Below are positions 9,841 to 59,115 of a stretch of 64,000 nt of DNA, in pieces. The notes under the pieces are model-generated. The model worked only from the letters and a program-made list of their open reading frames with translations. It made no database searches and was not told the origin of the DNA. A program made the translations under genes and the position numbers. Source of the DNA: Alphaproteobacteria bacterium (GTDB lineage Bacteria; Pseudomonadota; Alphaproteobacteria; Rickettsiales; UBA3002); NCBI GenBank assembly GCA_031402515.1, contig JANNSK010000097.1, positions 7,429-71,428 on the forward strand, in the 5' to 3' direction. The first letter of the stretch is position 1. Each line of letters starts with the position of its first letter.

Positions 9841-10086
9841 CTATTCCGCGCGTTTTTTTAACATTTCAAGTTCCTGCGCCAGCCGTTCATTCTCGGTGCG
9901 GGCCTTTTCCGCCATGGCCTTGACAACTTCGAACTCATCGCGGGTAACGAAGCGTTCGCGGGCCACAAGCCGCTCAAGCTTATCGGCGATAGTGGCTTCG
10001 ATCTCGCGCTTCATGTCCATCAGCGCGCCGGCAGCGCCCGATGTCATCCGCGCGAGGTCTTCGAAGAGCTTGGAGTCTTTTTGCAT
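9841..10086 (-). CDS. ubiK: UbiK/YqiC (BMFP) family accessory factor
   Basis: 81-aa coiled-coil protein (LFEDLARMTSGAAG...VTRDEFEVVKAMAEKARTENERL). Confidence 0.75.
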   Translation of the reverse strand: MQKDSKLFEDLARMTSGAAGALMDMKREIEATIADKLERLVARERFVTRDEFEVVKAMAEKARTENERLAQELEMLKKRAE

Positions 10087-10186
10087 AGTCGCTAGTGCTA
10101 GTTGCTAGTTGCTAGTCGAAGAAATGTATAGCAGATTAGTCGCCATGACAATCCTTCCACTAGCAACTAGCACTAGCGACTAGCAC
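10087..10186. repeat. inverted heptamer-array hairpin, unit GCTAGTK
   Basis: agtcgctagtgctagttgctagttgctagtcg ... ccactagcaactagcactagcgactagcac. It fills the divergent ubiK/hldD spacer. Confidence 0.9.
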
Positions 10187-10188
10187 TT

Positions 10189-11185: not shown

Positions 11186-11265
11186 GTTGTTGGTTTTTGG
11201 TTGTTGGTTATTAGAATCAACGAAGTGGCCGTTTGCCAACAACCAACAACCAACAACTAACAACC
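11186..11265. repeat. inverted heptamer-array hairpin, unit GTTGTTG
   Basis: gttgttggtttttggttgttggttattag ... ccaacaaccaacaaccaacaactaacaacc. It ends at the lgt ATG. Confidence 0.9.
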
Positions 11266-12048
11266 ATGCAATTTCCCGGCATCGACCCCATTGCCTTTGC
11301 CATCGGCCCGCTGGTCATACGCTGGTACGCACTTGCCTATGTGGCAGGCATCGTGCTCGGGAATATCTATGTCGTGTGGCTGAATCGCAGGCACGCATTT
11401 TTCAGTAAGGCCGCGTTGGACGATTTGATTCTCTACGCCGTGCTTGGGGTGATTTTGGGCGGGCGTATCGGCTATGTGCTCTTTTATAACCTTCCCTATT
11501 TCATCGACCATCCGGGCGGCATCCTGCAGGTCTGGCGCGGCGGCATGTCGTTCCATGGCGGCTTAGGCGGCGTACTGGTTGCCTTCTACCTGTTCGCGCG
11601 CAAACACAAAATCTCCTACTTGCGTGTGCTGGATTTCCTTGCTGCGGCGACGCCGATCGGATTGTTTCTCGGCAGGCTTGCTAACTTTGTGAACGGTGAG
11701 CTATACGGGCGCGTCACTGCTTCCTCGTTCGGCATGGTGTTCCCCAATGGTGGACCGGAACCACGTTATCCCAGCCAATTATTCGAGGCGGCACTCGAAG
11801 GCGCAGTACTCTTTATTATCTTGTTTCTGCTCGCCACCCGCACCCGCGCGCTCAATTATCGCGGCATACTGGGGGGGGCCTTCATCGCTGGATATGGCAT
11901 CTTCCGTTTCTGCGTCGAATATGTGCGTGAGCCGGATACGCAGCTTGGATTACTGGCGCTTGGGTTTTCCATGGGCCAGTGGCTGTGCATACCGATGATT
12001 GGTTTAGGGGCGTGGCTATTGCTGACGGCGAAGAAGCGAGAAGTTTAA
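11266..12048 (+). CDS. lgt: prolipoprotein diacylglyceryl transferase
   Basis: MQFPGIDPIAF..GPL.IRWYALAY, GGRIGYVLFYN, QVWRGGMSFHGG. The ATG at 11266 is preferred over the ORF-track start at 11233. Confidence 0.9.
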   Translation: MQFPGIDPIAFAIGPLVIRWYALAYVAGIVLGNIYVVWLNRRHAFFSKAALDDLILYAVLGVILGGRIGYVLFYNLPYFIDHPGGILQVWRGGMSFHGGLGGVLVAFYLFARKHKISYLRVLDFLAAATPIGLFLGRLANFVNGELYGRVTASSFGMVFPNGGPEPRYPSQLFEAALEGAVLFIILFLLATRTRALNYRGILGGAFIAGYGIFRFCVEYVREPDTQLGLLALGFSMGQWLCIPMIGLGAWLLLTAKKREV

Positions 12049-12064
12049 TGATTGAAGTGCAACA

Positions 12065-12198
12065 GGCACGGTCGGCCCCCTCCCCCTTGAGGGGGAGGGT
12101 TGAGGTGAGGGCGGCAGCCCATCCGACTTCTGAGCGTGCATCGAACGCCCCCCTCCTAACCTCCCCCCTAGAGGGGGGAGGGATCCCACCACCGTGCC
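12065..12198. repeat. GC-rich MITE-like element, family A
   Basis: Termini GGCACGGT / ACCGTGCC. Internal hairpins ccctcccccttgagggggaggg and cctcccccctagaggggggagg. About 85-90% identical by eye to the inverted copy at 20583-20722. Confidence 0.85.
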
Positions 12199-20582: not shown

Positions 20583-20722
20583 GGCGGTGAGGTTCCTCCC
20601 CCCTCTAGGGGGGAGGTTAGGAGGAGGGCGTTTTCCGCTTACTCCGAATCCGAGTTTTATGGAGAAGCTGCCGCCCTCACCCCACCCTCCCCCTCAAGGG
20701 GGAGGGAGCCATAGACCGTGCC
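20583..20722. repeat. GC-rich MITE-like element, family A (inverted relative to 12065-12198)
   Basis: cctcccccctctaggggggaggttaggagg ... gccgccctcaccccaccctccccctcaagggggaggg ... gaccgtgcc. Confidence 0.85.
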
Positions 20723-20811: not shown

Positions 20812-21747
20812 ATGAAACTCATCGCCGGGAACAGTAACCAGCCGTTAGCGAAAGCGATGGCGGATTATCTGAAGCTGAAGCTGACCGACGCTTCCATCCG
20901 CCGGTTTTCCGATAATGAGATTTTCGTCGAGATACAGGAAAACGTGCGCGGTGAGGATGTATTCGTCATCCAGTCGACGAGCTTTCCCACCAACGACCAT
21001 TTGATGGAATTAATGATCATGCTCGATGCGTTGCGTAGGGCTTCCGCCAGCCGGGTGACGGCGGTGATTCCCTATTTCGGCTATGCGCGTCAGGACAGAA
21101 AGCCCGGTCCGCGCACGCCGATTTCGGCCAAGCTTGTCGCCAACCTCATCACCGAAGCCGGTGCCGACCGCGTGCTCACCGTCGATTTACACGCCGGTCA
21201 GATACAAGGTTTCTTCGACATACCGCTCGACCATCTCTATGCGCGGCCGGTGATCGTCGACGACATCAAGGAACATTTCAAGGACTTGGGCAACCTCATG
21301 ATTGTCTCGCCCGATACGGGCGGCGTGGTGCGCGCCCGCTCGCTCGCCGGCAAGCTCGATGTTGATCTGGCTATCGTCGATAAGCGGCGCGAGAAGGACA
21401 ACCAGTCGGAAGTGATGAACATCATCGGCGAGGTGAAGGGCAGGGACTGTATCCTGTTCGACGATATCGTCGATACGGCAGGCACGCTTTGCAACGCCGC
21501 CAAGGCGATCATGGACGAGGGGGCAAAATCCGTATCGGCCTACGTCACCCACGGCGTGCTTTCGGGACCGGCGCTGGCGCGGGTGGAAAAATCCGTACTG
21601 AAATCCCTCGTCGTTACCGACTCGATCATGGCCACGGAAGCCGCCAAGAAATGTGGCAACTTACGCATCATTTCCATCGCCCCGCTGCTTGCCGAAGCGG
21701 TCAATCGGATTGCTGAGGAAAGCTCGGTTTCTAGCTTATTTGATTAG
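20812..21747 (+). CDS. prs: ribose-phosphate pyrophosphokinase
   Basis: [14 protein letters not shown]..., [19 protein letters not shown]. The ORF-track start at 20587 runs through a repeat element. Confidence 0.95.
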
Positions 21748-21815
21748 GGATTGGGGATTGGGGATTAGGGATTAGGGGAAATTCCCTTAAAACCCAATCC
21801 CTAATCCCCCATCCC
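21745..21815. repeat. inverted heptamer-array hairpin, unit GGGATTR
   Basis: tagggattggggattggggattagggattagggg-aaatt-cccttaaaacccaatccctaatcccccatccc. It starts on the prs stop codon. Confidence 0.9.
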
Positions 21816-23274: not shown

Positions 23275-24375
23275 ATGGGATTCAATTGTGGCATCGTTGG
23301 TCTACCCAACGTCGGCAAATCGACCCTGTTCAACGCCCTGCTCTCGCAGCAGGCGGCGGAAGCAGCGAATTACCCGTTCTGTACGATTGAGCCGAATGTG
23401 GGCCGCATTGCTGTGCCCGATGCACGGCTGGATAAACTCGCAGCGATTGCAGGCTCGGCCACCATCATCCCTACCCAGCTTGAATTTGTGGACATCGCAG
23501 GACTCGTGCGCGGGGCGAGCAAGGGCGAAGGCTTGGGTAACCAGTTCCTTGCCCATATCCGCGAGGTGGATGCGGTGATGTATGTGCTGCGCTGCTTTGA
23601 AGATACCGACATTATCCATGTCGAAGGCTCCGTCGACCCGTTACGCGACGCCGAAATCATCGAGCTCGAACTCATCCTCGCCGACATGGAGAGCCTCGAG
23701 AAACGTTTTGATAACCTTAGCAAAAAAGCCAAATCCGGCGATAAGGAAACACTCGCCGGCCTCGCCTTGATGGAGCCAATTTTAGCGCTGCTACGCGACG
23801 GCAAACCCGCGCGTTTGTATAAACCAAAAGATCGCGAGGAAGCCAAACGCGTTCGCGCCTTGCAACTCCTCACCAGCAAACCGGTGATGTATGTATTGAA
23901 TGTCGAGGAGACCGCAGCCGCCACCGGCAACGAGCTCTCGACGAAAGCCGCCGCGATGGCCAAGGAAAAAAATGCTGCTGCGGTGGTCATTTCTGCCAAA
24001 ATCGAATCCGAGATGGCGGGCCTATCCGACGCCGAGAAAACCGAATTCCTGGAGAGTTTAGGGCTGCATGAAACCGGCCTTGCCAATATCGTGCGCACCG
24101 GCTTCACCCTGCTGGATATATTGAGTTTCTTCACTGTCGGTCCCAAAGAGGCCCGCGCCTGGACCGTGCGTCGGGGAGCGCTGGCACCGGAAGCTGCCGG
24201 CGTCATCCATACCGATTTCGAAAAAGGCTTCATACGCGCCGAAACGATTGCCTATGCGGATTATATCGCCTTGGGCGGCGAACACGGTGCGAAAGAAGCC
24301 GGAAAACTCCGGCTTGAGGGCAAGGAATATGTCACCCAAGATGGTGACGTGTTTCATTTCAGATTTAATGTGTAG
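23275..24375 (+). CDS. ychF: redox-regulated ATPase YchF
   Basis: GIVGLPNVGKSTLFNAL, a TGS domain, and a C-terminal DGDV.HFRFNV. Confidence 0.95.
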   Translation: MGFNCGIVGLPNVGKSTLFNALLSQQAAEAANYPFCTIEPNVGRIAVPDARLDKLAAIAGSATIIPTQLEFVDIAGLVRGASKGEGLGNQFLAHIREVDAVMYVLRCFEDTDIIHVEGSVDPLRDAEIIELELILADMESLEKRFDNLSKKAKSGDKETLAGLALMEPILALLRDGKPARLYKPKDREEAKRVRALQLLTSKPVMYVLNVEETAAATGNELSTKAAAMAKEKNAAAVVISAKIESEMAGLSDAEKTEFLESLGLHETGLANIVRTGFTLLDILSFFTVGPKEARAWTVRRGALAPEAAGVIHTDFEKGFIRAETIAYADYIALGGEHGAKEAGKLRLEGKEYVTQDGDVFHFRFNV

Positions 24376-24376
24376 A

Positions 24377-24468
24377 AGGTTCCGGGTGCCAGGTTTCAGG
24401 TTTCAGGAATTTTTCTTTCTGCTATACTCCTCTGGAACCTGAAACCCGGAACCCGGAACCTGAAACCT
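24377..24468. repeat. inverted heptamer-array hairpin, unit GGTTYCR
   Basis: aggttccgggtgccaggtttcaggtttcagg ... ctggaacctgaaacccggaacccggaacctgaaacct. It runs from the ychF stop to the next start. Confidence 0.9.
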
Positions 24469-24472
24469 ATCT

Positions 24473-24994
24473 ATGCTTTTCCCCTCCTCCAATCCCAAAA
24501 CGCCCCGCCTGTTTCCGCGCTGGATCAGCTGGCTGTTTTTAGGCTTCCTCGGCTATATCATGGTGATGGGTAACTTCTCCGGTAGCCCTGAGCCCAATAA
24601 GCAAGTGGAGTCCGGCGGTGCGTCATCCACGCAAAAATACCCGAAACTCGCCGAACTTGCCGATAAGGAACAGTGGAAACATGCGCTCAACCCCGACTAT
24701 GTCGGCTCCGCGCGCTGGCGTGAAATCAAGGAAGGCGATGGCGAAGGTGCCGTCTGTGGTGGCGAACTCACCGTCAAGATTACCGGCATCGCAGGCACGC
24801 CGGACACGCCACAGGCCATCAAGCTCGGCAACGCGCCTTACCCGGTGCTCGATACGGCGCTGATTGGATTAAAGCCCGGCGGCATCCGTGAAATCTCCGC
24901 CCCGCCAGACAAGGTTTACGCCAAACCCGCCAAAAACCAAACCCGCATGGTCGATTTTACCGTGGAGCGGGTGGCAGGGTCTCCAGCGAAATAA
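24473..24994 (+). CDS. membrane-anchored protein with FKBP-type PPIase-like C-terminal domain
   Basis: One N-terminal TM segment. The C-terminal pattern (I.EG.GEGA.CG..L.V...G.......LG......LD.AL.G.KPGG.R.I..PP...Y) is FKBP-like. Confidence 0.4.
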   Translation: MLFPSSNPKTPRLFPRWISWLFLGFLGYIMVMGNFSGSPEPNKQVESGGASSTQKYPKLAELADKEQWKHALNPDYVGSARWREIKEGDGEGAVCGGELTVKITGIAGTPDTPQAIKLGNAPYPVLDTALIGLKPGGIREISAPPDKVYAKPAKNQTRMVDFTVERVAGSPAK

Positions 24995-29509: not shown

Positions 29510-29571
29510 AAGCCTACAGCCAACAGCTTACAGCCTACAGCTAAGAGCTGTCGGCTGTCGGCTGTAGGCTT
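29510..29571. repeat. inverted heptamer-array hairpin, unit GCCTACA/GCTGTAG
   Basis: aagcctacagccaacagcttacagcctacagct-aag-agctgtcggctgtcggctgtaggctt. It occupies essentially the entire ahpC-trxB spacer. Confidence 0.9.
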
Positions 29572-35968: not shown

Positions 35969-37158
35969 CAGGCCACCCTCTTCTTGTGCGCGTCGATCAT
36001 TTCGACGAAGCGCTTGAACATATAGTGCGAATCATGCGGGCCGGGGGAGGCTTCGGGGTGGCCTTGCACCGAAAACACCGGCGCGGATTTCATTTCGATG
36101 CCTTGGATGGTGCCATCGAACAGCGAACGGTGGGTGACTTCGATTTCTGCAGGCAATCCCGAATCGCTAATGGCGAAGCCATGATTCTGCGAGGTGATAG
36201 ACACCTTACCCGTACGCAAATCCTTCACCGGATGGTTAGCGCCGCGATGGCCCTGTTTCATTTTCTCGGTTTTGGCATTGAGTGCGATGCCCAGCATCTG
36301 GTGGCCGAGGCATATGCCGAATAGCGGGATGCCCGAGGCGATTAGTTTTTTAATGACAGGCACTGCGTATGTACCCGTCGCCGCCGGATCGCCGGGCCCG
36401 TTGGATAAAAATATGCCGTCGGGCTTCAGCGCTAACACATCCTCGGCGCTCGTAGTGGCAGGCACCACGGTGATGCGGCAACCGGCTGAGGCAATGCAGC
36501 GCAGGATGTTCAGCTTCACGCCGTAATCGATGGCTACCACATGGTAAGAGGTGGCAGGTGGCAGGTGGCAGGTGGCAAGCGAGTCATAGCCTTTGCCAAG
36601 CTTCCACTTGGTCTGATCCCAGATGTGGGATTTCTTGGTGGTGACCGTGGCCGCCAATTCCAGTCCAGCCATATTGGGCGCCGCGGCCAGCCGCTGCTTC
36701 GCCTGTTCGCTTGCCACCTGCCACTTGCCACCTGCCACATAAGCAATCGCCGCATTCTGCGCACCCTTGGTGCGGATATGTCGGGTCAGTGCGCGCGTAT
36801 CGACACCGGTAATGCCGGTGAGTTTGTTTTTCTTCAGCCATGCATCGAGATGCAAAGTAGAGCGGAAATTCGATGGGTCGGTAATCGCCTCGCGAAGGAC
36901 AAGACCCGCTACGACGGGTGTCGCGGATTCGATATCCTCGTCGTTGGTGCCTACATTGCCAATATGGGGGAAGGTGAAGGTGATAATCTGGCCGCAATAG
37001 GAGGGATCAGTGAGCACTTCCTGGTAGCCGGTCATCGCGGTATTAAAACAGATTTCACCAGAGGTGGCACCTTCATGCCCGATGCCATATCCGGAAAACA
37101 CCGCCCCGTCCGCGAGTACCAGCGCGGCGTTCGGGGGTTTTACCAGCGACACGACCAT
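35968..37158 (-). CDS. carA: carbamoyl-phosphate synthase small subunit (glutaminase)
   Basis: CarA N-terminal domain followed by a class-I GATase (GICLGHQ, HRG.NHPV, QGHPE). The stop overlaps the carB start. Confidence 0.95.
36548..36738. repeat. inverted heptamer arrays (unit GTGGCAG) inside carA, arms 128 nt apart
   Basis: gaggtggcaggtggcaggtggcaggtggcaagc (36548-36580) and gcttgccacctgccacttgccacctgccac (36709-36738). Confidence 0.9.
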
Positions 37159-37252: not shown

Positions 37253-37272
37253 CTCCCCCCTCAAGTGGGGAG
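37253..37272. repeat. single CTCCCC...GGGGAG hairpin module between pilin-like gene 1 and carA
   Basis: ctcccccctcaagtggggag. Confidence 0.6.
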
Positions 37273-38073: not shown

Positions 38074-38153
38074 AGCCCACAGCCTACAGCCCACAGCACT
38101 TCCGAGCAAGCGTCTCGGCCAAGCTAAAAGCTGTAGGCTGTTAGCTGTTGGCT
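38074..38153. repeat. inverted heptamer-array hairpin, unit GCCYACA/GCTGTWG
   Basis: agcccacagcctacagcccacagc ... aagctgtaggctgttagctgttggct. It lies between the phaZ stop and the pilin-like start. Confidence 0.9.
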
Positions 38154-44436: not shown

Positions 44437-44518
44437 GAGCCGACAGCCTGTAGCCGACAGCTTTAGAAACAATGCAGATGGTTAAAAGCTCTAGGCTGTA
44501 GGCTGTAAGCTGTAGGCC
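44437..44518. repeat. inverted heptamer-array hairpin, unit GCCGACA/GCTGTAG
   Basis: gagccgacagcctgtagccgacagcttt ... aaagctctaggctgtaggctgtaagctgtaggcc. It lies between tadB and tadC inside the operon. Confidence 0.9.
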
Positions 44519-51419: not shown

Positions 51420-51593
51420 TACGTCACCCTATGCTCAACATCAGCCCGCAGACAGGTACACTTGCAGCCCATCCGCGCGACACCTGTTTACGAATTAGCA
51501 AGCGGCGTCAAACATCGTCAAGCGAATACGACCATACACAGGGCTGTTGATAAGCTTCTTGGTAACACTGAACGAATTTTGTCGCAGATGGGA

Positions 51594-51653
51594 GTGTGGC
51601 AGGTGACAAGTGACAGGTGGCATGTGGCCCCTATCGCCTGCCACTTGCCACCA
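51594..51653. repeat. inverted heptamer-array hairpin, unit GTGRCAR (asymmetric arms)
   Basis: gtgtggcaggtgacaagtgacaggtggcatgtggc ... gcctgccacttgccacc, in the divergent cpaB/guaA spacer. Confidence 0.8.
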
Positions 51654-53893: not shown

Positions 53894-55258
53894 GTGAATC
53901 AGGAATCAGGAATCAGGACTCAGGAATTAAGGACGTTTCGTTTCTTGATTCCTTTCATCTTTTCATCCTGCCTCCTCCTTTCTGCCTGTGACCTGCCCGA
54001 CTGGATTGGTGGACCCAAAAAAGAAATCAAACGCGCGCCGGGCGAGCGTATCGATATCGTCGCTCCTTCCTCCGGCCTTAAGGCGGACCCGGCGGCGCAA
54101 AGCACCGAAATCGAATTTCCCGACCAGCAAGGGCTCACCGACTGGACAAGCCGCAACAATGCGCTCGGTGGTGCCCATATCGGCCTGACCGGGATTGAGC
54201 ATACGCAGTCCGAGCGCATCGGTGACGGCAACGCATTTTCGCATCCGCACGCGCCGCAGCCTATCGTCACCGGTGGGCTGGTCGTGGCGATGGATGCGGC
54301 GGGATTTGTCTCGGCGCATGATGCGGCGGACATCGATAATGTACGCTGGGTAAGTGCGGCGGGCGAAGAAGAGGATGGGGACGATGTGCTGGGCGGCGGT
54401 CTTGCTACCGACGGGCAGGTTATCTTCGCTACTACCGGCTTCGGTCGTCTGTTCGCCCTCGATCTTAAAACCGGCAAGAAACTATGGAAAACAAGCGTCG
54501 GCGCTCCGGTGCGCGGCGCCCCTGCGGTAAGTGCTGGCACCGTCGTTGTCCTCACCGCCGATGGCCAGACGCTGGGTTTCGATGCGGCAACCGGTGCGCC
54601 GCGCTGGAGCCATCGCGGCATCCGCGAATCGGCGGGTTACTTCTCCTCCACCGCGCCGGTTATCAGCGAAGACGGTATCGTCATGGCCGCCTATGCTTCG
54701 GGCGAAATCTTCGCCATGCGTGCCGAATCGGGCGACGTGTTGTGGTCCGACACGTTGGTTGCCGGTGATAAAACCAGCGCTTCGGCTGTATTCAGCGGGA
54801 TTGATGCCGACCCTATCGTACAGGATGGGGCAGTAGTCGTGGTCTCCGCTGCGGGCGCCATGCAGGCCTCATCCCTGCCCAATGGCCGGCCCCTCTGGCA
54901 GCAGCGCATCGGTGCCCATGTCACACCATGGCCTGCGGGCAATGCCGTATTTATGTTGACCACAGGGCATGACCTTGCTGCCCTCCTTAAAGCCGATGGG
55001 TCGGTGCGCTGGGCCGTATCGCTCGCTGAGAAAGACGATCGCGGCAAGGATATCACCCCGCCATTATACGGCCCCATCCTTGCCGGCAACGCCATCATGG
55101 TAGTAAAGGGAGATGGCACACTCGTCACCTACCGCCCCCAGGACGGCAAACATTTACGCGACTATGAGCTCGATAGCGGCATCGTTTCCGACCCCGTCAT
55201 CGCTGGCGGGGCGCTGTATCTGGTCGATAAAAGCGCAAGGCTGCATAAGTATTATTAG
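53894..55258 (+). CDS. bamB: outer membrane protein assembly factor BamB (PQQ-like beta-propeller lipoprotein)
   Basis: Lipobox LLSAC and repeated PQQ-like blades. GTG start; the exact start is uncertain. Confidence 0.8.
   Translation: MNQESGIRTQELRTFRFLIPFIFSSCLLLSACDLPDWIGGPKKEIKRAPGERIDIVAPSSGLKADPAAQSTEIEFPDQQGLTDWTSRNNALGGAHIGLTGIEHTQSERIGDGNAFSHPHAPQPIVTGGLVVAMDAAGFVSAHDAADIDNVRWVSAAGEEEDGDDVLGGGLATDGQVIFATTGFGRLFALDLKTGKKLWKTSVGAPVRGAPAVSAGTVVVLTADGQTLGFDAATGAPRWSHRGIRESAGYFSSTAPVISEDGIVMAAYASGEIFAMRAESGDVLWSDTLVAGDKTSASAVFSGIDADPIVQDGAVVVVSAAGAMQASSLPNGRPLWQQRIGAHVTPWPAGNAVFMLTTGHDLAALLKADGSVRWAVSLAEKDDRGKDITPPLYGPILAGNAIMVVKGDGTLVTYRPQDGKHLRDYELDSGIVSDPVIAGGALYLVDKSARLHKYY
53896..53932. 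repeat. heptamer array GAATCAG x4 at the bamB 5' end, with a degenerate partner downstream
   Basis: gaatcaggaatcaggaatcaggactcaggaattaagg. The possible eroded complement is cttgattcctttcatcttttcatcctg, about 15 nt downstream. Confidence 0.7.
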
Positions 55259-55259
55259 A

Positions 55260-55332
55260 ATGTGACAAGTGACAGGTGGCAGGTGACATGTTACGCCTCG
55301 GCCCTTGTCACCTGTCACCTGTCACATGTCAC
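55260..55332. repeat. inverted heptamer-array hairpin, unit GTGACAG
   Basis: atgtgacaagtgacaggtggcaggtgacatg ... cttgtcacctgtcacctgtcacatgtcac. It runs from the bamB stop to 5 nt before the der ATG. Confidence 0.9.
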
Positions 55333-55336
55333 TCTT

Positions 55337-56689
55337 ATGAGCGCAGCGAAAATCATCGCCATTATCGGCCGGCCGAACGTGGGTAAATCCACGCTCTTTA
55401 ACCGGCTTGTGGGCAAAAAAATGGCGCTGGTCGACGACCAGCCCGGTGTCACGCGCGATCGCCGCTACGCGAAAGCCGAGCTCGCCGGGATGAAATTCGA
55501 CATTATCGATACGGCGGGGATGGAAGAAAAAGCGCCCGACACACTCACCGCGCGCATGATGAATCAAACACGCGAAGCCATCAAAGAAGCCGACATCATT
55601 TTGTTCATGGTCGATGCGCGCGCGGGCGTGACTCCGGCGGATGAATCGTTCGCCCGCCTGCTGCACCAAAGCGGCAAACCCATCGTGCTCACCGTCAACA
55701 AGGCCAAAGGCCGCGCCGGGACCAACGTCATGGGTGAAATCTATGCCTTGGGCTTTGAAAATCTTGCGCTCATCTCCGCCGAGCATGGCGAAGGCATGGG
55801 CGATTTGTTCGATGCGCTTTCGCCATTGATTGGCCAGGATCAGGCCGACATCGACGAAGGCGAGAAGCCGCTAAAAATCACGATTCTAGGAAGGCCCAAC
55901 GCCGGCAAGTCCACGCTGGTCAACGCGCTGCTCGGTGAGGATCGCTTGCTGACCAGCCCGGAGGCGCACACCACGCGCGACGCCATCGCCGTGCGGTTCG
56001 AGCATAACGGCAAGCCGGTCGAAATCGTCGATACCGCAGGCATGCGCAAACGCGCCAATATGCAAGGCAAGGTGGAGCATCTGGCCGTCGCCGATTCCAT
56101 CCGCGCCATGCAATTCGCCGAAATCGTCATCGTGCTGATCGACGCCACCGCGCCGCTCGAGAAGCAGGACGCGAACATTGCATCGCTGGTGGAGCGCGAA
56201 GGCCGCGCCTGTGTGATCGGCGTGAATAAATGGGATCTCGTCACCGGCGATAAAAAAGTCTGGATGGAGGAATTCAAATACCAGCTAAGCAAACATTTGT
56301 TCCAGATGGCGGGCGTCACCGTGGTGCCGATCTCCGCCTCGCGGGGCAAGGGCCTCGACACACTCATCGACGCCTGTTTTGCCGCGCGCGATGTGTGGGA
56401 ATCGCGCGTATCGACGCCGGACCTCAATAACTGGCTGGAGGGTATGCTGGGCGCCCACACCACGCCGATGATCCGTGGCCGTCGCCTCAAAATCAAATAC
56501 ATGACGCAGGTGAAAACGCGGCCGCCGACATTCCAACTTTTCTGCAATATGTCGCGCGAATTCCCCGATGCCTATCTGCGCTACCTCGTCGCCGGCATCC
56601 GCAAAACCTTCGCCATGGAAGGCACACCGATTCGCACTATCCTCAAAGTCAGCAACAACCCGTTCGAGAAGAAAAAGAAGAAAAAATGA
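55337..56689 (+). CDS. der: ribosome-biogenesis GTPase Der (EngA)
   Basis: Two tandem GTPase domains (GRPNVGKST twice, DTAG twice, NK.D) plus a KH-like C-terminus. The ATG at 55337 is preferred. Confidence 0.95.
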   Translation: MSAAKIIAIIGRPNVGKSTLFNRLVGKKMALVDDQPGVTRDRRYAKAELAGMKFDIIDTAGMEEKAPDTLTARMMNQTREAIKEADIILFMVDARAGVTPADESFARLLHQSGKPIVLTVNKAKGRAGTNVMGEIYALGFENLALISAEHGEGMGDLFDALSPLIGQDQADIDEGEKPLKITILGRPNAGKSTLVNALLGEDRLLTSPEAHTTRDAIAVRFEHNGKPVEIVDTAGMRKRANMQGKVEHLAVADSIRAMQFAEIVIVLIDATAPLEKQDANIASLVEREGRACVIGVNKWDLVTGDKKVWMEEFKYQLSKHLFQMAGVTVVPISASRGKGLDTLIDACFAARDVWESRVSTPDLNNWLEGMLGAHTTPMIRGRRLKIKYMTQVKTRPPTFQLFCNMSREFPDAYLRYLVAGIRKTFAMEGTPIRTILKVSNNPFEKKKKKK

Positions 56690-57621
56690 CCGCCGCCGCC
56701 ATTCGCATATCGCAACTGAAGAAAACCTATCAGGACCGCAAAACCGGTGAGGCGAAGGTGGCGCTCAAGGGCGTTGATCTTACCATTCCCAAAGGCTCGT
56801 TCTTTGGCCTGCTGGGGCCGAACGGTGCGGGCAAATCGACGATGATTAACGTCATGGCGGGGACGGTGGTAAAAACGTCCGGCACCGTCGAGATCATGGG
56901 CCACGATATCGATACGGAAAACCGCAGCGCCAAACTGTCGATCGGTGTGGTGCCGCAGGAGCTGATTCTCGATACGTTCTTCACCGTGCGTCAGGCGCTC
57001 GAAATTACCGCGGGTTATTACGGCATTCCCAAAGCCAAACGCCGCACGGACGAAATCATCACCGTCATGGGCCTCGCCGATAAGGCGGACGTGCCCTCGC
57101 GCCGTTTATCGGGCGGGATGCGGCGCAGGCTGCTCATCGGTAAAGCCCTTGTCCATAACCCGCCGGTGCTGATTCTCGATGAGCCGACTGCGGGGGTCGA
57201 TGTCGAACTCCGCCGCTCGCTTTGGGAATATGTGAAAAAGCTCAACAAACAAGGCACGACGATTCTGCTCACCACCCATTACCTCGAGGAAGCTGAGGAA
57301 TTGTGCGACGAAATCGCCATCATCAACCACGGCGACATCATTGCCCGCGACAAAAAACGCGCCCTCATGCGCGGCATCGACAGCAAGGAAGTCTTCTTCA
57401 CCTTCGACAAACCGCTTTCGGAAGTGCCCACTGGCCTTGCCGATATGCAGGCATCCGTCCGCGACGGCTATTTGGTTGTGAAATACCAGCCGAGCTTAGC
57501 TGCGATGGAGGAAATCCTCGCCCGCGTGAAAGCCGCCGGCCTCACCATCCACGACATCTCGACCAAAGAAGTCGACCTCGAGGATTTGTTTGTGTCGCTT
57601 ACGTCGGGCAAGGCGGCTTAG
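56686..57621 (+). CDS. ABC transporter ATP-binding protein (ABC-2/DrrA-like)
   Basis: Walker A GPNGAGKST, signature LSGGMRRR, and Walker B ILDEPT. No permease gene is adjacent. Confidence 0.85.
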   Translation: MTAAAIRISQLKKTYQDRKTGEAKVALKGVDLTIPKGSFFGLLGPNGAGKSTMINVMAGTVVKTSGTVEIMGHDIDTENRSAKLSIGVVPQELILDTFFTVRQALEITAGYYGIPKAKRRTDEIITVMGLADKADVPSRRLSGGMRRRLLIGKALVHNPPVLILDEPTAGVDVELRRSLWEYVKKLNKQGTTILLTTHYLEEAEELCDEIAIINHGDIIARDKKRALMRGIDSKEVFFTFDKPLSEVPTGLADMQASVRDGYLVVKYQPSLAAMEEILARVKAAGLTIHDISTKEVDLEDLFVSLTSGKAA

Positions 57622-57656
57622 AACCGCTAATTGTCATCAAATCTTCACACAAAGCA

Positions 57657-57678
57657 CCCCCCCCCCCCGTGGTATACT
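57657..57678 (+). promoter_or_regulatory. poly-C(12) tract abutting an extended -10 (TGgTATACT)
   Basis: C12 at 57657-57668, TG at 57670-57671, and TATACT at 57673-57678. This is about 55 nt upstream of the ATG at 57733. Confidence 0.5.
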
Positions 57679-57732
57679 GAGCTTGTTGGTAGTAGAGCCG
57701 ACAAGCGTTTTAACAAAACAGGGAGCAAGCCA

Positions 57733-58137
57733 ATGGCTAATATAAAAACTGACGAAACCAATCAACCGAACATGCAAGAAGCAATTCGGAATTTTTCGAT
57801 TTCCAAACAGGATGCGGTGACAAATGGTCAAAAAATGATTGATGAACTCGATGCGCTCGACGGTGCCAAGGATGAAGTTATCAGGCCAGCATTGGCCGTT
57901 GACGCTTTGCATAAGCGATACGGTGTGCCGAAAGACCCAAACGAAAAGACTATACCGGCGAATGTTGTGATACCAGTTGCGCTTGCGACGGATGTGATGC
58001 GTAAAGTAATAGACCTTCTTGACCATGATAAGGACGAAAAAATCAGTGGCGATGAGATGCTAAATCCGCCGCCATCCGTGGTGAAGTCGCTCGAAGAACT
58101 CAAAAAAACCGTTCCAGGCTCGGAATACCTGAAATAA
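57733..58137 (+). CDS. hypothetical protein with a canonical EF-hand calcium-binding loop
   Basis: GGGAG ribosome-binding site. The loop DHDKDEKISGDE fits D-x-D-x-D-x-x-I-x-x-x-E. The gene is AT-richer than its flanks. Confidence 0.55.
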   Translation: MANIKTDETNQPNMQEAIRNFSISKQDAVTNGQKMIDELDALDGAKDEVIRPALAVDALHKRYGVPKDPNEKTIPANVVIPVALATDVMRKVIDLLDHDKDEKISGDEMLNPPPSVVKSLEELKKTVPGSEYLK

Positions 58138-58146
58138 AGGGACGAC

Positions 58147-58788
58147 TTACCCTCCGATTTCCACCATCACCTCGTTGCGGCGGAAGAAAGGTAATGTCCA
58201 TGGCGGGTTGTAAAAGGCCAGCGTCGGGCTGCCGCGCGGGCGCAGTTTATTGACCTTCACATACTCCGCCAACGCTTCCATATTTTTGGCAATACGCGCT
58301 TCATTTGCGGTACCGGAGAAGCGAATCACGGCAAATCGATGCGCGGGAATTGTCTTCAGCTTCACCGCTGTATTGTTCGGCTTCGGCAGGGTTTTCAGGG
58401 TGTAGCTTGAAGGCATCACGAAGCGCACCTTCCACTCGCCCTCAGCGCTTGCTTGTTGGATAACCGGTGCCGTCATCGCGATTTTCTCGGACTGCTGGGT
58501 AACGGGTGCGGTCATTGCCACTTTTGCTGACGCGGTATTGTCGCCGAAAATGTAACCGGCAATGGTGCGGAACCCTTCCTTGATGGCAATCTCGCGCTCA
58601 CCTTTCACGGTTGTCTCAGCGATAATCGCGGGCTCATAGCGGCGCAACTCGATATTGCCCTCCGCCTTCTCGACGGTGTATTTCGCCTGCTCCACGCGGC
58701 TGGCAAGTGGCCCCCAGGCGATGATGGCAATCAGCGCGACGGCAACAACGATCCAGATCATTTTTTTGTTTCCTTTGGCAGTCTTCAT
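58147..58788 (-). CDS. SOUL heme-binding family protein
   Basis: N-terminal TM or signal segment followed by SOUL/HBP-like sequence (YEPAIIAET.V.G....A...GFR.IAGYIFG.N). The ATG at 58788 is used because the longer ORF would overlap the tRNA. Confidence 0.7.
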   Translation of the reverse strand: MKTAKGNKKMIWIVVAVALIAIIAWGPLASRVEQAKYTVEKAEGNIELRRYEPAIIAETTVKGEREIAIKEGFRTIAGYIFGDNTASAKVAMTAPVTQQSEKIAMTAPVIQQASAEGEWKVRFVMPSSYTLKTLPKPNNTAVKLKTIPAHRFAVIRFSGTANEARIAKNMEALAEYVKVNKLRPRGSPTLAFYNPPWTLPFFRRNEVMVEIGG

Positions 58789-58911
58789 GTGGGTCTCCAT
58801 CCTAAGTTTTACCAGTCCCCCTACGCTAAAGCTTCGGGCGACACTCCTTCGCTCTAACGGTTTCAGGTGTCTGACTGGCGTCAGCCACCCGAAGCCCGTA
58901 AGGGCGAAGGG

Positions 58912-58988
58912 TGGCGCACCCGATTGGAGTCGAACCAACAACCTTTGCCTTCGGAGGGCAACACTCTATCCAGTTGAGCTACGGGTGC
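58912..58988 (-). tRNA. tRNA-Arg (anticodon CCG)
   Basis: 77 nt folded by hand: acceptor GCACCCG/CGGGTGC, D-arm GCTC..GAGT, anticodon stem TTGCC/GGCAA with loop CTCCGAA, T-arm GTTGG-TTCGACT-CCAAT, discriminator G, encoded CCA. Confidence 0.9.
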
Positions 58989-59038
58989 GCGCGAGGAGCG
59001 TCATACAGGGCCACGGGGGGCTTGGCCAAGTTTTTTCA

Positions 59039-59115
59039 ACCAGCCAACAGCCAACAGCTTATAGCCGGGCTGAGCCACTTGCACGGCGGAGCTATAGGCT
59101 GTAGGCTCAAGGCCC
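59039..59115. repeat. inverted heptamer-array hairpin, unit GCCAACA/GCTGTAG
   Basis: accagccaacagccaacagcttatagcc ... ggagctataggctgtaggctcaaggcc. It ends at the ATG of pilin-like paralogue 2. Confidence 0.85.

Follow-up and report, generated by a model that had tools for sequence, protein, structure and literature searches.

The ABC transporter–SOUL interval and its orphan gene

The window analysed here is the whole stretch of DNA under study, 64,000 nucleotides (64 kb) from an uncultured alphaproteobacterium. The interval described below contains, in order, genes for BamB, Der, an ABC transporter ATPase, a 134-residue orphan protein (ORF134), a SOUL family protein and tRNA-Arg(CCG), followed by a prepilin-like gene and the gene for ManC, with the SOUL and tRNA genes on the minus strand; other parts of the window contain housekeeping genes and a Tad pilus locus. 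The ABC transporter ATPase gene (56686–57621, plus strand; Pfam ABC_tran, 2.3e-32) is the conserved left border of the slot in which ORF134 lies, and the SOUL haem-binding family gene (58147–58791, minus strand; Pfam SOUL, 8.6e-50) is its conserved right border. The tRNA-Arg(CCG) gene (58912–58988, minus strand; ARAGORN, and 65 bits in Rfam) lies upstream of the SOUL gene on the same strand.

ORF134 occupies 57733–58137 on the plus strand, with its ATG at 57733 and its stop codon at 58135–58137, and a Shine-Dalgarno sequence, GGGAG (57721–57725, plus strand), is located 7 nt before the ATG. A prior sequence-only reading of this DNA had called a 134-residue ORF with a good ribosome-binding site, and that call holds. 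It had also described the ORF as AT-richer, at about 42% GC; ORF134 is indeed AT-richer than the neighbouring genes (55–58% GC), although its GC content is 45.4%. The values for the three codon positions (GC1/2/3) are 0.59/0.31/0.46, against a GC3 of 0.60–0.75 in the neighbours, whose GC1 is similar to that of ORF134. This composition fits a real coding sequence recently acquired from a lower-GC donor, and a 129-residue ORF antisense to ORF134 looks non-coding. The ORF134 and SOUL genes are convergent and 9 nt apart, and a terminator-like hairpin and T-run belonging to the SOUL gene (58102–58134, minus strand; terminator scan) sits within the last 12 codons of ORF134.

We found no homologue of ORF134 among 5.8 billion proteins, and a full phmmer scan of 1.84 billion representatives returned a single match (P0003), a eukaryotic coiled-coil repeat protein that we dismissed as a case of repeat inflation. 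There was no match in JGI metagenome proteins, or in plasmids and phages. The product is predicted to be helical, and its residues 97–109 form an EF-hand loop (DHDKDEKISGDEM) that satisfies all positions of PROSITE PS00018, the pattern for a 12-residue loop with ligands at positions 1, 3, 5 and 12, except loop position 6 (E), with D97, D99, D101, I104 and E108 in place. The Pfam EF-hand models score below their cut-offs (EF-hand_7, 17.7 vs 30; EF-hand_6, 13.9 vs 25; EF-hand_1, 13.5 vs 25.4). A single-sequence AF2 model (pLDDT 64) has units of helix, short strand and helix in a helix-loop-helix arrangement, which in EF-hand proteins commonly comes in pairs; a Foldseek search of this model against the PDB gave no match with an E-value below 0.9, and the weak top matches, CDPK, calcineurin B, calmodulin and ALG-2, are EF-hand proteins. 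The loop is thus present and near-canonical, as had been proposed, but the word canonical slightly overstated it, given the failure at PS00018 position 6 and the Pfam scores, and the product is EF-hand-like, not an established EF-hand protein. The loop had further been presented as uncommon in bacteria, but bacterial EF-hand proteins are not especially rare.

The third EF-hand loop of CHP1/p22 (DLDKDEKISRDEL; PDB 2e30, 7dsv) is identical to the ORF134 loop at 10 of 13 positions, and the two share an unusual Glu at loop position 6. The match between the whole proteins is not significant (E 0.32), ORF134 has one recognisable EF-hand loop only, and membership of the family is not established. Neither a signal peptide nor a hydrophobic N-terminus or hydrophobic segment was found in ORF134, in agreement with the lack of a signal peptide already remarked on, and the product looks cytoplasmic. 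The Foldseek list also includes a human complex of an EF-hand protein with a SOUL protein, ALG-2/HEBP2 (5gqq). A link between ORF134 and its SOUL neighbour by this analogy is doubtful, because the SOUL neighbour carries a membrane or signal segment at its N-terminus and ORF134 does not.

Orthologues of the ABC ATPase with 64–86% identity are found in uncultured Alphaproteobacteria labelled as Rickettsiales or Rhodospirillales MAGs. The best syntenic relative, L057, matches the window in the ABC ATPase (82%), Der (74%), the pilin-like protein (66%) and SOUL (66%), and has the gene order Der, ABC, SnoaL-like(-), Sbt_1(-), SOUL(-), tRNA-Arg(-), pilin-like, ManC. Since L057 has the SnoaL-like and Sbt_1 genes at this position, ORF134 and its leader take the place of two other genes; in both L057 and L059, the Sbt_1 gene follows SOUL on the same strand where the window has ORF134. 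We considered whether ORF134 is a decayed remnant of Sbt_1 or the SnoaL-like gene and rejected this, as it has no similarity to the L057 genes. In other relatives the ABC gene is followed by a tRNA (L006), a hydrolase gene (L060), a TfoX gene (L062) or a repeat-rich gap (L061), and comparison of window positions 57622–58146 with L003–L009, L028, L057 and L060–L062 shows a different ABC-downstream gene in each relative. This position appears to be a gene-turnover hot spot, and in three genomes it lies close to tRNA-Arg(CCG). These comparisons show ORF134 and its leader to be a lineage-specific, low-GC3 and, by its composition, apparently foreign insert in a hypervariable slot.

The C12 tract

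Direct reading places an uninterrupted run of 12 C at 57657–57668 (plus strand), a single G at 57669 and the sequence TGgTATACT (TGGTATACT) at 57670–57678, which confirms the coordinates given in the sequence-only reading for a C12 tract 1 nt before that motif. The tract ends 64 nt before the ATG of ORF134 and spans the positions 64–76 nt upstream of it. No other homopolymer in the window exceeds 8 nt, the next longest being A8 (n = 3) and G8 (n = 1). A C run of at least 12 is expected about 0.01 times in the window under an iid model, and C10 is expected 0.17 times in dinucleotide shuffles, against three overlapping matches observed. Uninterrupted and 12 nt long, the tract falls in the range for high-rate slippage (about 8 nt or more). 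Several such tracts per genome are typical of phase-variable systems, although not strictly defining, and there is a single long homopolymer in these 64 kb.

A search for the two flanks of the tract separated by a gap of 4–30 nt gave no match, and no further copies of the locus were found in protein databases or JGI metagenomes. In the ABC-downstream spacers of the relatives examined, there is no C or G run longer than 6 nt, which argues that the tract is young and specific to this genome. The distant alphaproteobacterial MAG L025 (Lab288P3bin233) offers a parallel, a C12 run of its own (7180–7191), located in AT-rich DNA directly after the ABC ATPase orthologue and 58 nt upstream of the ATG of a roughly 600-residue protein that has a signal peptide; the run is followed 17 nt downstream by TGGTATTTT.

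The 10-mer CCCCCCGTGG has exactly two copies in the window, against 0.18 expected. The first is at the 3' end of the C12 run; the second, at 59011–59020 on the minus strand, is inverted, 1.35 kb away and within the spacer of the probable tRNA-Arg promoter (TTGGCC-N18-TATGAC, whose discriminator is GC-rich), and the ORF134, SOUL and tRNA genes are bracketed by two inward-facing predicted promoters. A wider alignment around the two copies is not significant. L057 lacks CCCCCCGTGG and has GCGCGCGG at the tRNA-Arg promoter position. An inversion of the ORF134–SOUL–tRNA segment between the two copies was rejected, since L057 keeps the minus-strand orientation of SOUL and tRNA and the flanks of the copies do not align. 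We also considered whether the tract derives from a tRNA relic: the L006 tRNA-Arg begins GCACCCG 41 nt after the ABC stop codon, and the window has GCAC12G 33 nt after it. This idea is unsupported, as only a post hoc collapse of the tract makes the alignment significant (42 of 1000 shuffles), and a second tRNA was not found with Rfam.

Promoter geometry and comparison with known promoter tracts

The extended -10-like element TGgTATACT (57670–57678, plus strand) is predicted from motif enrichment. TGNTATACT is present in four copies in the window vs 0.40 expected, a 10-fold excess reached in none of 100 shuffles, and all four copies are on the plus strand. Three of the four end 44–79 nt before a start codon on their own strand (P of about 4e-5 to 3e-4), namely 79 nt before a Tim44-like gene, 44 nt before an orphan ORF at 24473–24994 and 54 nt before ORF134; the fourth is inside the MltA gene. 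The extended -10 claimed earlier is strengthened by this distribution, and the distance of about 55 nt given from promoter to ATG agrees with the 54 nt that separate the end of the -10 hexamer from the ATG. There is fair evidence that TGgTATACT acts as a functional extended -10, and the tract, 1 nt away, lies next to the predicted core promoter of a real gene. The putative transcription start of ORF134 would be near 57685.

The TGNTATACT site at 2010, upstream of the Tim44-like gene, is within secB, a divergent gene that begins only 9 nt from the start of the Tim44-like gene. The copy before the orphan 173-residue ORF at 24473–24994, which has no Pfam match, is in the loop of a very stable palindrome between that ORF and ychF (24370–24470; -53.8 kcal/mol, z -8.2). 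The palindrome is built of CAGGTTT and GGAACCT heptamers, with TGCTATACT in its loop.

The only good -35-like hexamer at ORF134 is TTCACA (57644–57649, plus strand), a 5/6 match to TTGACA that is located 23 nt upstream of TATACT. The spacer between the two consists of CAAAGCA, the C12 run and GTGG, and a tract of C5–C7 would give 16–18 nt. At the other two TGNTATACT sites at promoter distance, TTTTCA or GTTTCA is found 16–17 nt upstream of TATACT. A consensus scan of the 111-nt ABC–ORF134 spacer found no canonical sigma-70 promoter at C12. Two other promoter classes were assessed by eye and set aside: the GG and GC elements of a sigma-54 promoter would be 8 nt apart, not 10, and no EcfG-type match is seen. 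C12 is probably a weak allele in which the -35 is not used.

The reading that we put forward, with a little less than an even chance of being right, is that the C run is a hypermutable promoter tract that tunes the transcription of ORF134, at C12 probably weakening it. Replication slippage would change the length of the tract at high frequency, and each change would alter the distance and helical phase between the -10 and the upstream TTCACA or an activator site, making the tract a heritable and reversible control of ORF134 transcription like those of the opc and fim promoters. At C12, with 23 nt between them, TTCACA and the -10 are out of register by about 6 nt, and because of this the C12 allele would be either a weak extended -10 promoter without a -35 or one that depends on an activator; contraction to C5–C7 would create a canonical promoter.

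Known systems resemble this arrangement in part. A Bordetella survey singled out tracts located 21–80 nt before a start codon as those with the highest likelihood of promoter overlap, and 74% of the unusually long tracts varied among three species of the genus (PMC1891110); at 64–76 nt, the C12 run falls in the 21–80 nt class. For opc of Neisseria meningitidis, PMC3447861 and PMC6389960, citing Sarkari et al. 1994, describe an uninterrupted poly-C of about 11–14 nt immediately upstream of the -10 of a single gene, an arrangement like that of C12, and variants that arise spontaneously; according to the former, a change from 11C to 12C raises expression. The opc product is an adhesin on the surface of a host-restricted pathogen that has many loci of this kind, whereas ORF134 encodes a cytoplasmic-looking protein of an uncultured environmental alphaproteobacterium. 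In B. pertussis fim3, 13C is off and 14C is on, and poly-C tracts of 11–16 nt coexist within single cultures (PMC10172299). Like ORF134, the fim2, fim3 and fimX promoters lack a normally spaced -35 and have instead a C-stretch that separates the -10 from an upstream element, and in the fim model the activator region and the -10 must be more than 22 bases apart, a distance reminiscent of the 23 nt at ORF134 (PMC1891110, PMC10172299, PMC9708447). Activity of the fim promoters requires BvgA~P bound over the -35 region, and they share a conserved 'fim box' (PMC1891110, PMC10172299, PMC9708447). Unlike at fim, no activator or binding site is identifiable at the ORF134 promoter, and the fim genes encode fimbrial subunits. 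In the porA promoter of N. meningitidis, the length of a poly-G homopolymer sets the spacer between the -35 and the -10. Tracts of that type are within one step of the optimal 17 nt, whereas the ORF134 tract would need to lose 5–7 nt.

The phase-variable switch proposed by the sequence-only reading survives in its promoter anatomy, but the geometry is not that of a one-step ON/OFF switch, there is no surface product and 64 kb contain one tract. To align TTCACA the tract would have to be 5–7 nt shorter, so slippage by single steps would not switch a canonical promoter on and off. No difference in tract length was seen between the two assemblies that span it, the MAG window and the Logan contig L001 described below. 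The ORF134 product, which has no signal peptide, is not a typical contingency-gene product; surface or host-interaction functions are typical of such genes, although not strictly defining. The hairpin at 57681–57706, described below, overlaps the predicted transcription start and fits better with a transcript from upstream. A slipped-strand promoter tract of the opc or fim type is plausible but unproven.

Alternative readings and implications

The main rival is that the tract is a neutral passenger, which came with the foreign DNA or grew by slippage and which may be hypermutable with no regulatory effect; we regard this as a real possibility, if on the unlikely side. Extended -10 promoters can function without a -35, and for this reason the length of the spacer may not matter: the TGn extended -10 seen here would need no correctly spaced -35, and none is usable at 16–18 nt. 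The youth of the tract, which is absent from all relatives, fits this rival as well, as does a C10 run in the relative L005 (1085–1094), located in a GC-rich coding region that reads ...DLGGGSMEL... on the opposite strand, with three GGG glycine codons; because this run is in a coding region, long G/C runs are evidently tolerated in the coding DNA of this group. On the other side, it would be an unlikely coincidence for the sole 12-nt run in 64 kb to abut a core promoter element, and the -35-less opc and fim promoters are still controlled by tract length (PMC3447861, PMC10172299, PMC1891110).

A strong slippage habit of the genome also favours the neutral rival. We found 23 heptamer tandem arrays in the window vs 1.5 in Markov simulations, of 2.6–6.3 copies and with a different unit at each locus; examples are at 10081–10187, 11186–11266, 21742–21779, 29511–29570, 38074–38153, 44488–44517, 51584–51628, 53896–53927, 55262–55332 and 59041–59058. 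Many are inverted pairs that form long hairpins at gene boundaries, and the BamB and Der ORFs owe their long N-terminal extensions to read-through of arrays of this kind. They are found in the relatives L003, L004, L007 and L057 too. Over-representation of heptamers is a known phenomenon in some bacteria, and one unit of the window (GGGGATT) is the Nostoc heptamer repeat of PMC4692102. The arrays show that repeats of the slippage type build up in this genome, a slight point in favour of a neutral origin of the tract, and the tract could be a by-product of the same mutational bias.

Several further repeats were observed. The minus-strand carA gene contains an inverted heptamer pair, AGGTGGC x4 and TGCCACC x4, at 36549–36577 and 36712–36738. 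These arrays encode 11-residue stretches in poorly conserved segments, and since alignment with E. coli CarA reveals no large insertion, the repeats have overwritten coding sequence in frame. A similar inverted pair is present in L057 at 6357–6488, within the range of the Der gene. Most other C6 or G6 runs of the window are the arms of CCCCCC-loop-GGGGGG hairpins at gene ends (4148–4257, 12148–12178, 20598–20613, 37255–37260), which may be terminators or REP-like elements; L004 has a similar C/G-run hairpin after its ABC gene. The segment 61000–61800, between ManC and a ribonucleotide reductase gene, has about 33% GC vs a window mean of 56% and no long ORF.

Next, and improbable in our view, is that the tract belongs to the 3' UTR of the ABC ATPase transcript, past the stop codon (57621) and ahead of a terminator hairpin (57681–57706, followed by UUUU). 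The tract would then be inert, or a C-rich Rho-loading stretch, and ORF134 would be transcribed by read-through or from another promoter. The hairpin (plus strand; centroid fold) has a 10-bp stem and a 6-nt loop, starts 3 nt after the -10 and is followed by GTTTTA. It is stable (-14.3 kcal/mol) as a transcript from upstream, ending in GUUUUA, and a start near 57685 would remove 4 of its 10 pairs and leave 6 bp (-7.5 kcal/mol); palindromes are found directly after the ABC gene in relatives as well. Against this, only four U follow and the terminator scan did not call the site, and the enrichment of TGNTATACT at promoter distance would be left unexplained. The hairpin may serve as the terminator of the ABC gene, as a stem at the 5' end of the ORF134 mRNA or as an operator-like palindrome, and a 3' UTR role and a promoter role of the tract are not mutually exclusive.

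That the C12 is a sequencing or assembly artefact, whether a poly-G/C read artefact or a miscalled length, is very improbable. Homopolymers are error-prone, and of the two Logan contigs that we found by exact-protein look-up, one does not cross the tract: L002 (run SRR20217196) covers 57708–58842 and begins 40 nt past it. The other, L001 (57193–58842), an independent Logan assembly of run SRR20217205, matches the window over 1650 nt, C12 included. The tract is also shorter than all assembly k-mers and is bordered on either side by unique sequence, and the break in L002 is 40 nt from the tract, not at it, a position that is uninformative about the tract. The assemblies spanning the tract are the MAG window and L001, and their C12 readings are probably not independent. 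L001 and L002, from different runs, share their right-hand end at 58842, 70 nt short of the tRNA gene, which suggests a common branch point in the assembly graphs. We take the run to be real and to be an expected mutational hot spot, and by analogy we infer that it is hypermutable in this organism.

Translational phase variation, in which an in-frame TTG at 57631 starts a 168-residue form with the C12 read as Pro-Pro-Pro-Pro and one C gained or lost shifts the frame, is scarcely credible, for although the frame is open from 57631 through the tract into ORF134, 34 open codons are expected by chance about one time in five, the TTG is without a ribosome-binding site (the GGGAG is 7 nt before the ATG at 57733), and a frameshift leaves that ATG and Shine-Dalgarno sequence for the 134-residue protein.

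With an inert tract, the locus would amount to a small foreign insert of odd sequence and of little consequence. If instead the tract acts as a hypermutable promoter tract, a more specific and unlikely version is that, in an apparently non-pathogenic environmental alphaproteobacterium, expansion of the C run from about C6 to C12 reversibly silenced an acquired orphan gene for a cytoplasmic EF-hand protein; about C6 would give the canonical 17-nt spacer. Were this the case, slipped-strand bet-hedging would be a means to tame new genes and not one of immune evasion. Stochastic promoter homopolymers are known almost only from host-adapted pathogens and from surface structures, and a working tract here would widen the range of this strategy to an uncultured environmental alphaproteobacterium and to an acquired orphan gene with a calcium-binding-like product. 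The spectrum of tract lengths across samples would then provide a read-level test for bet-hedging in metagenomes.
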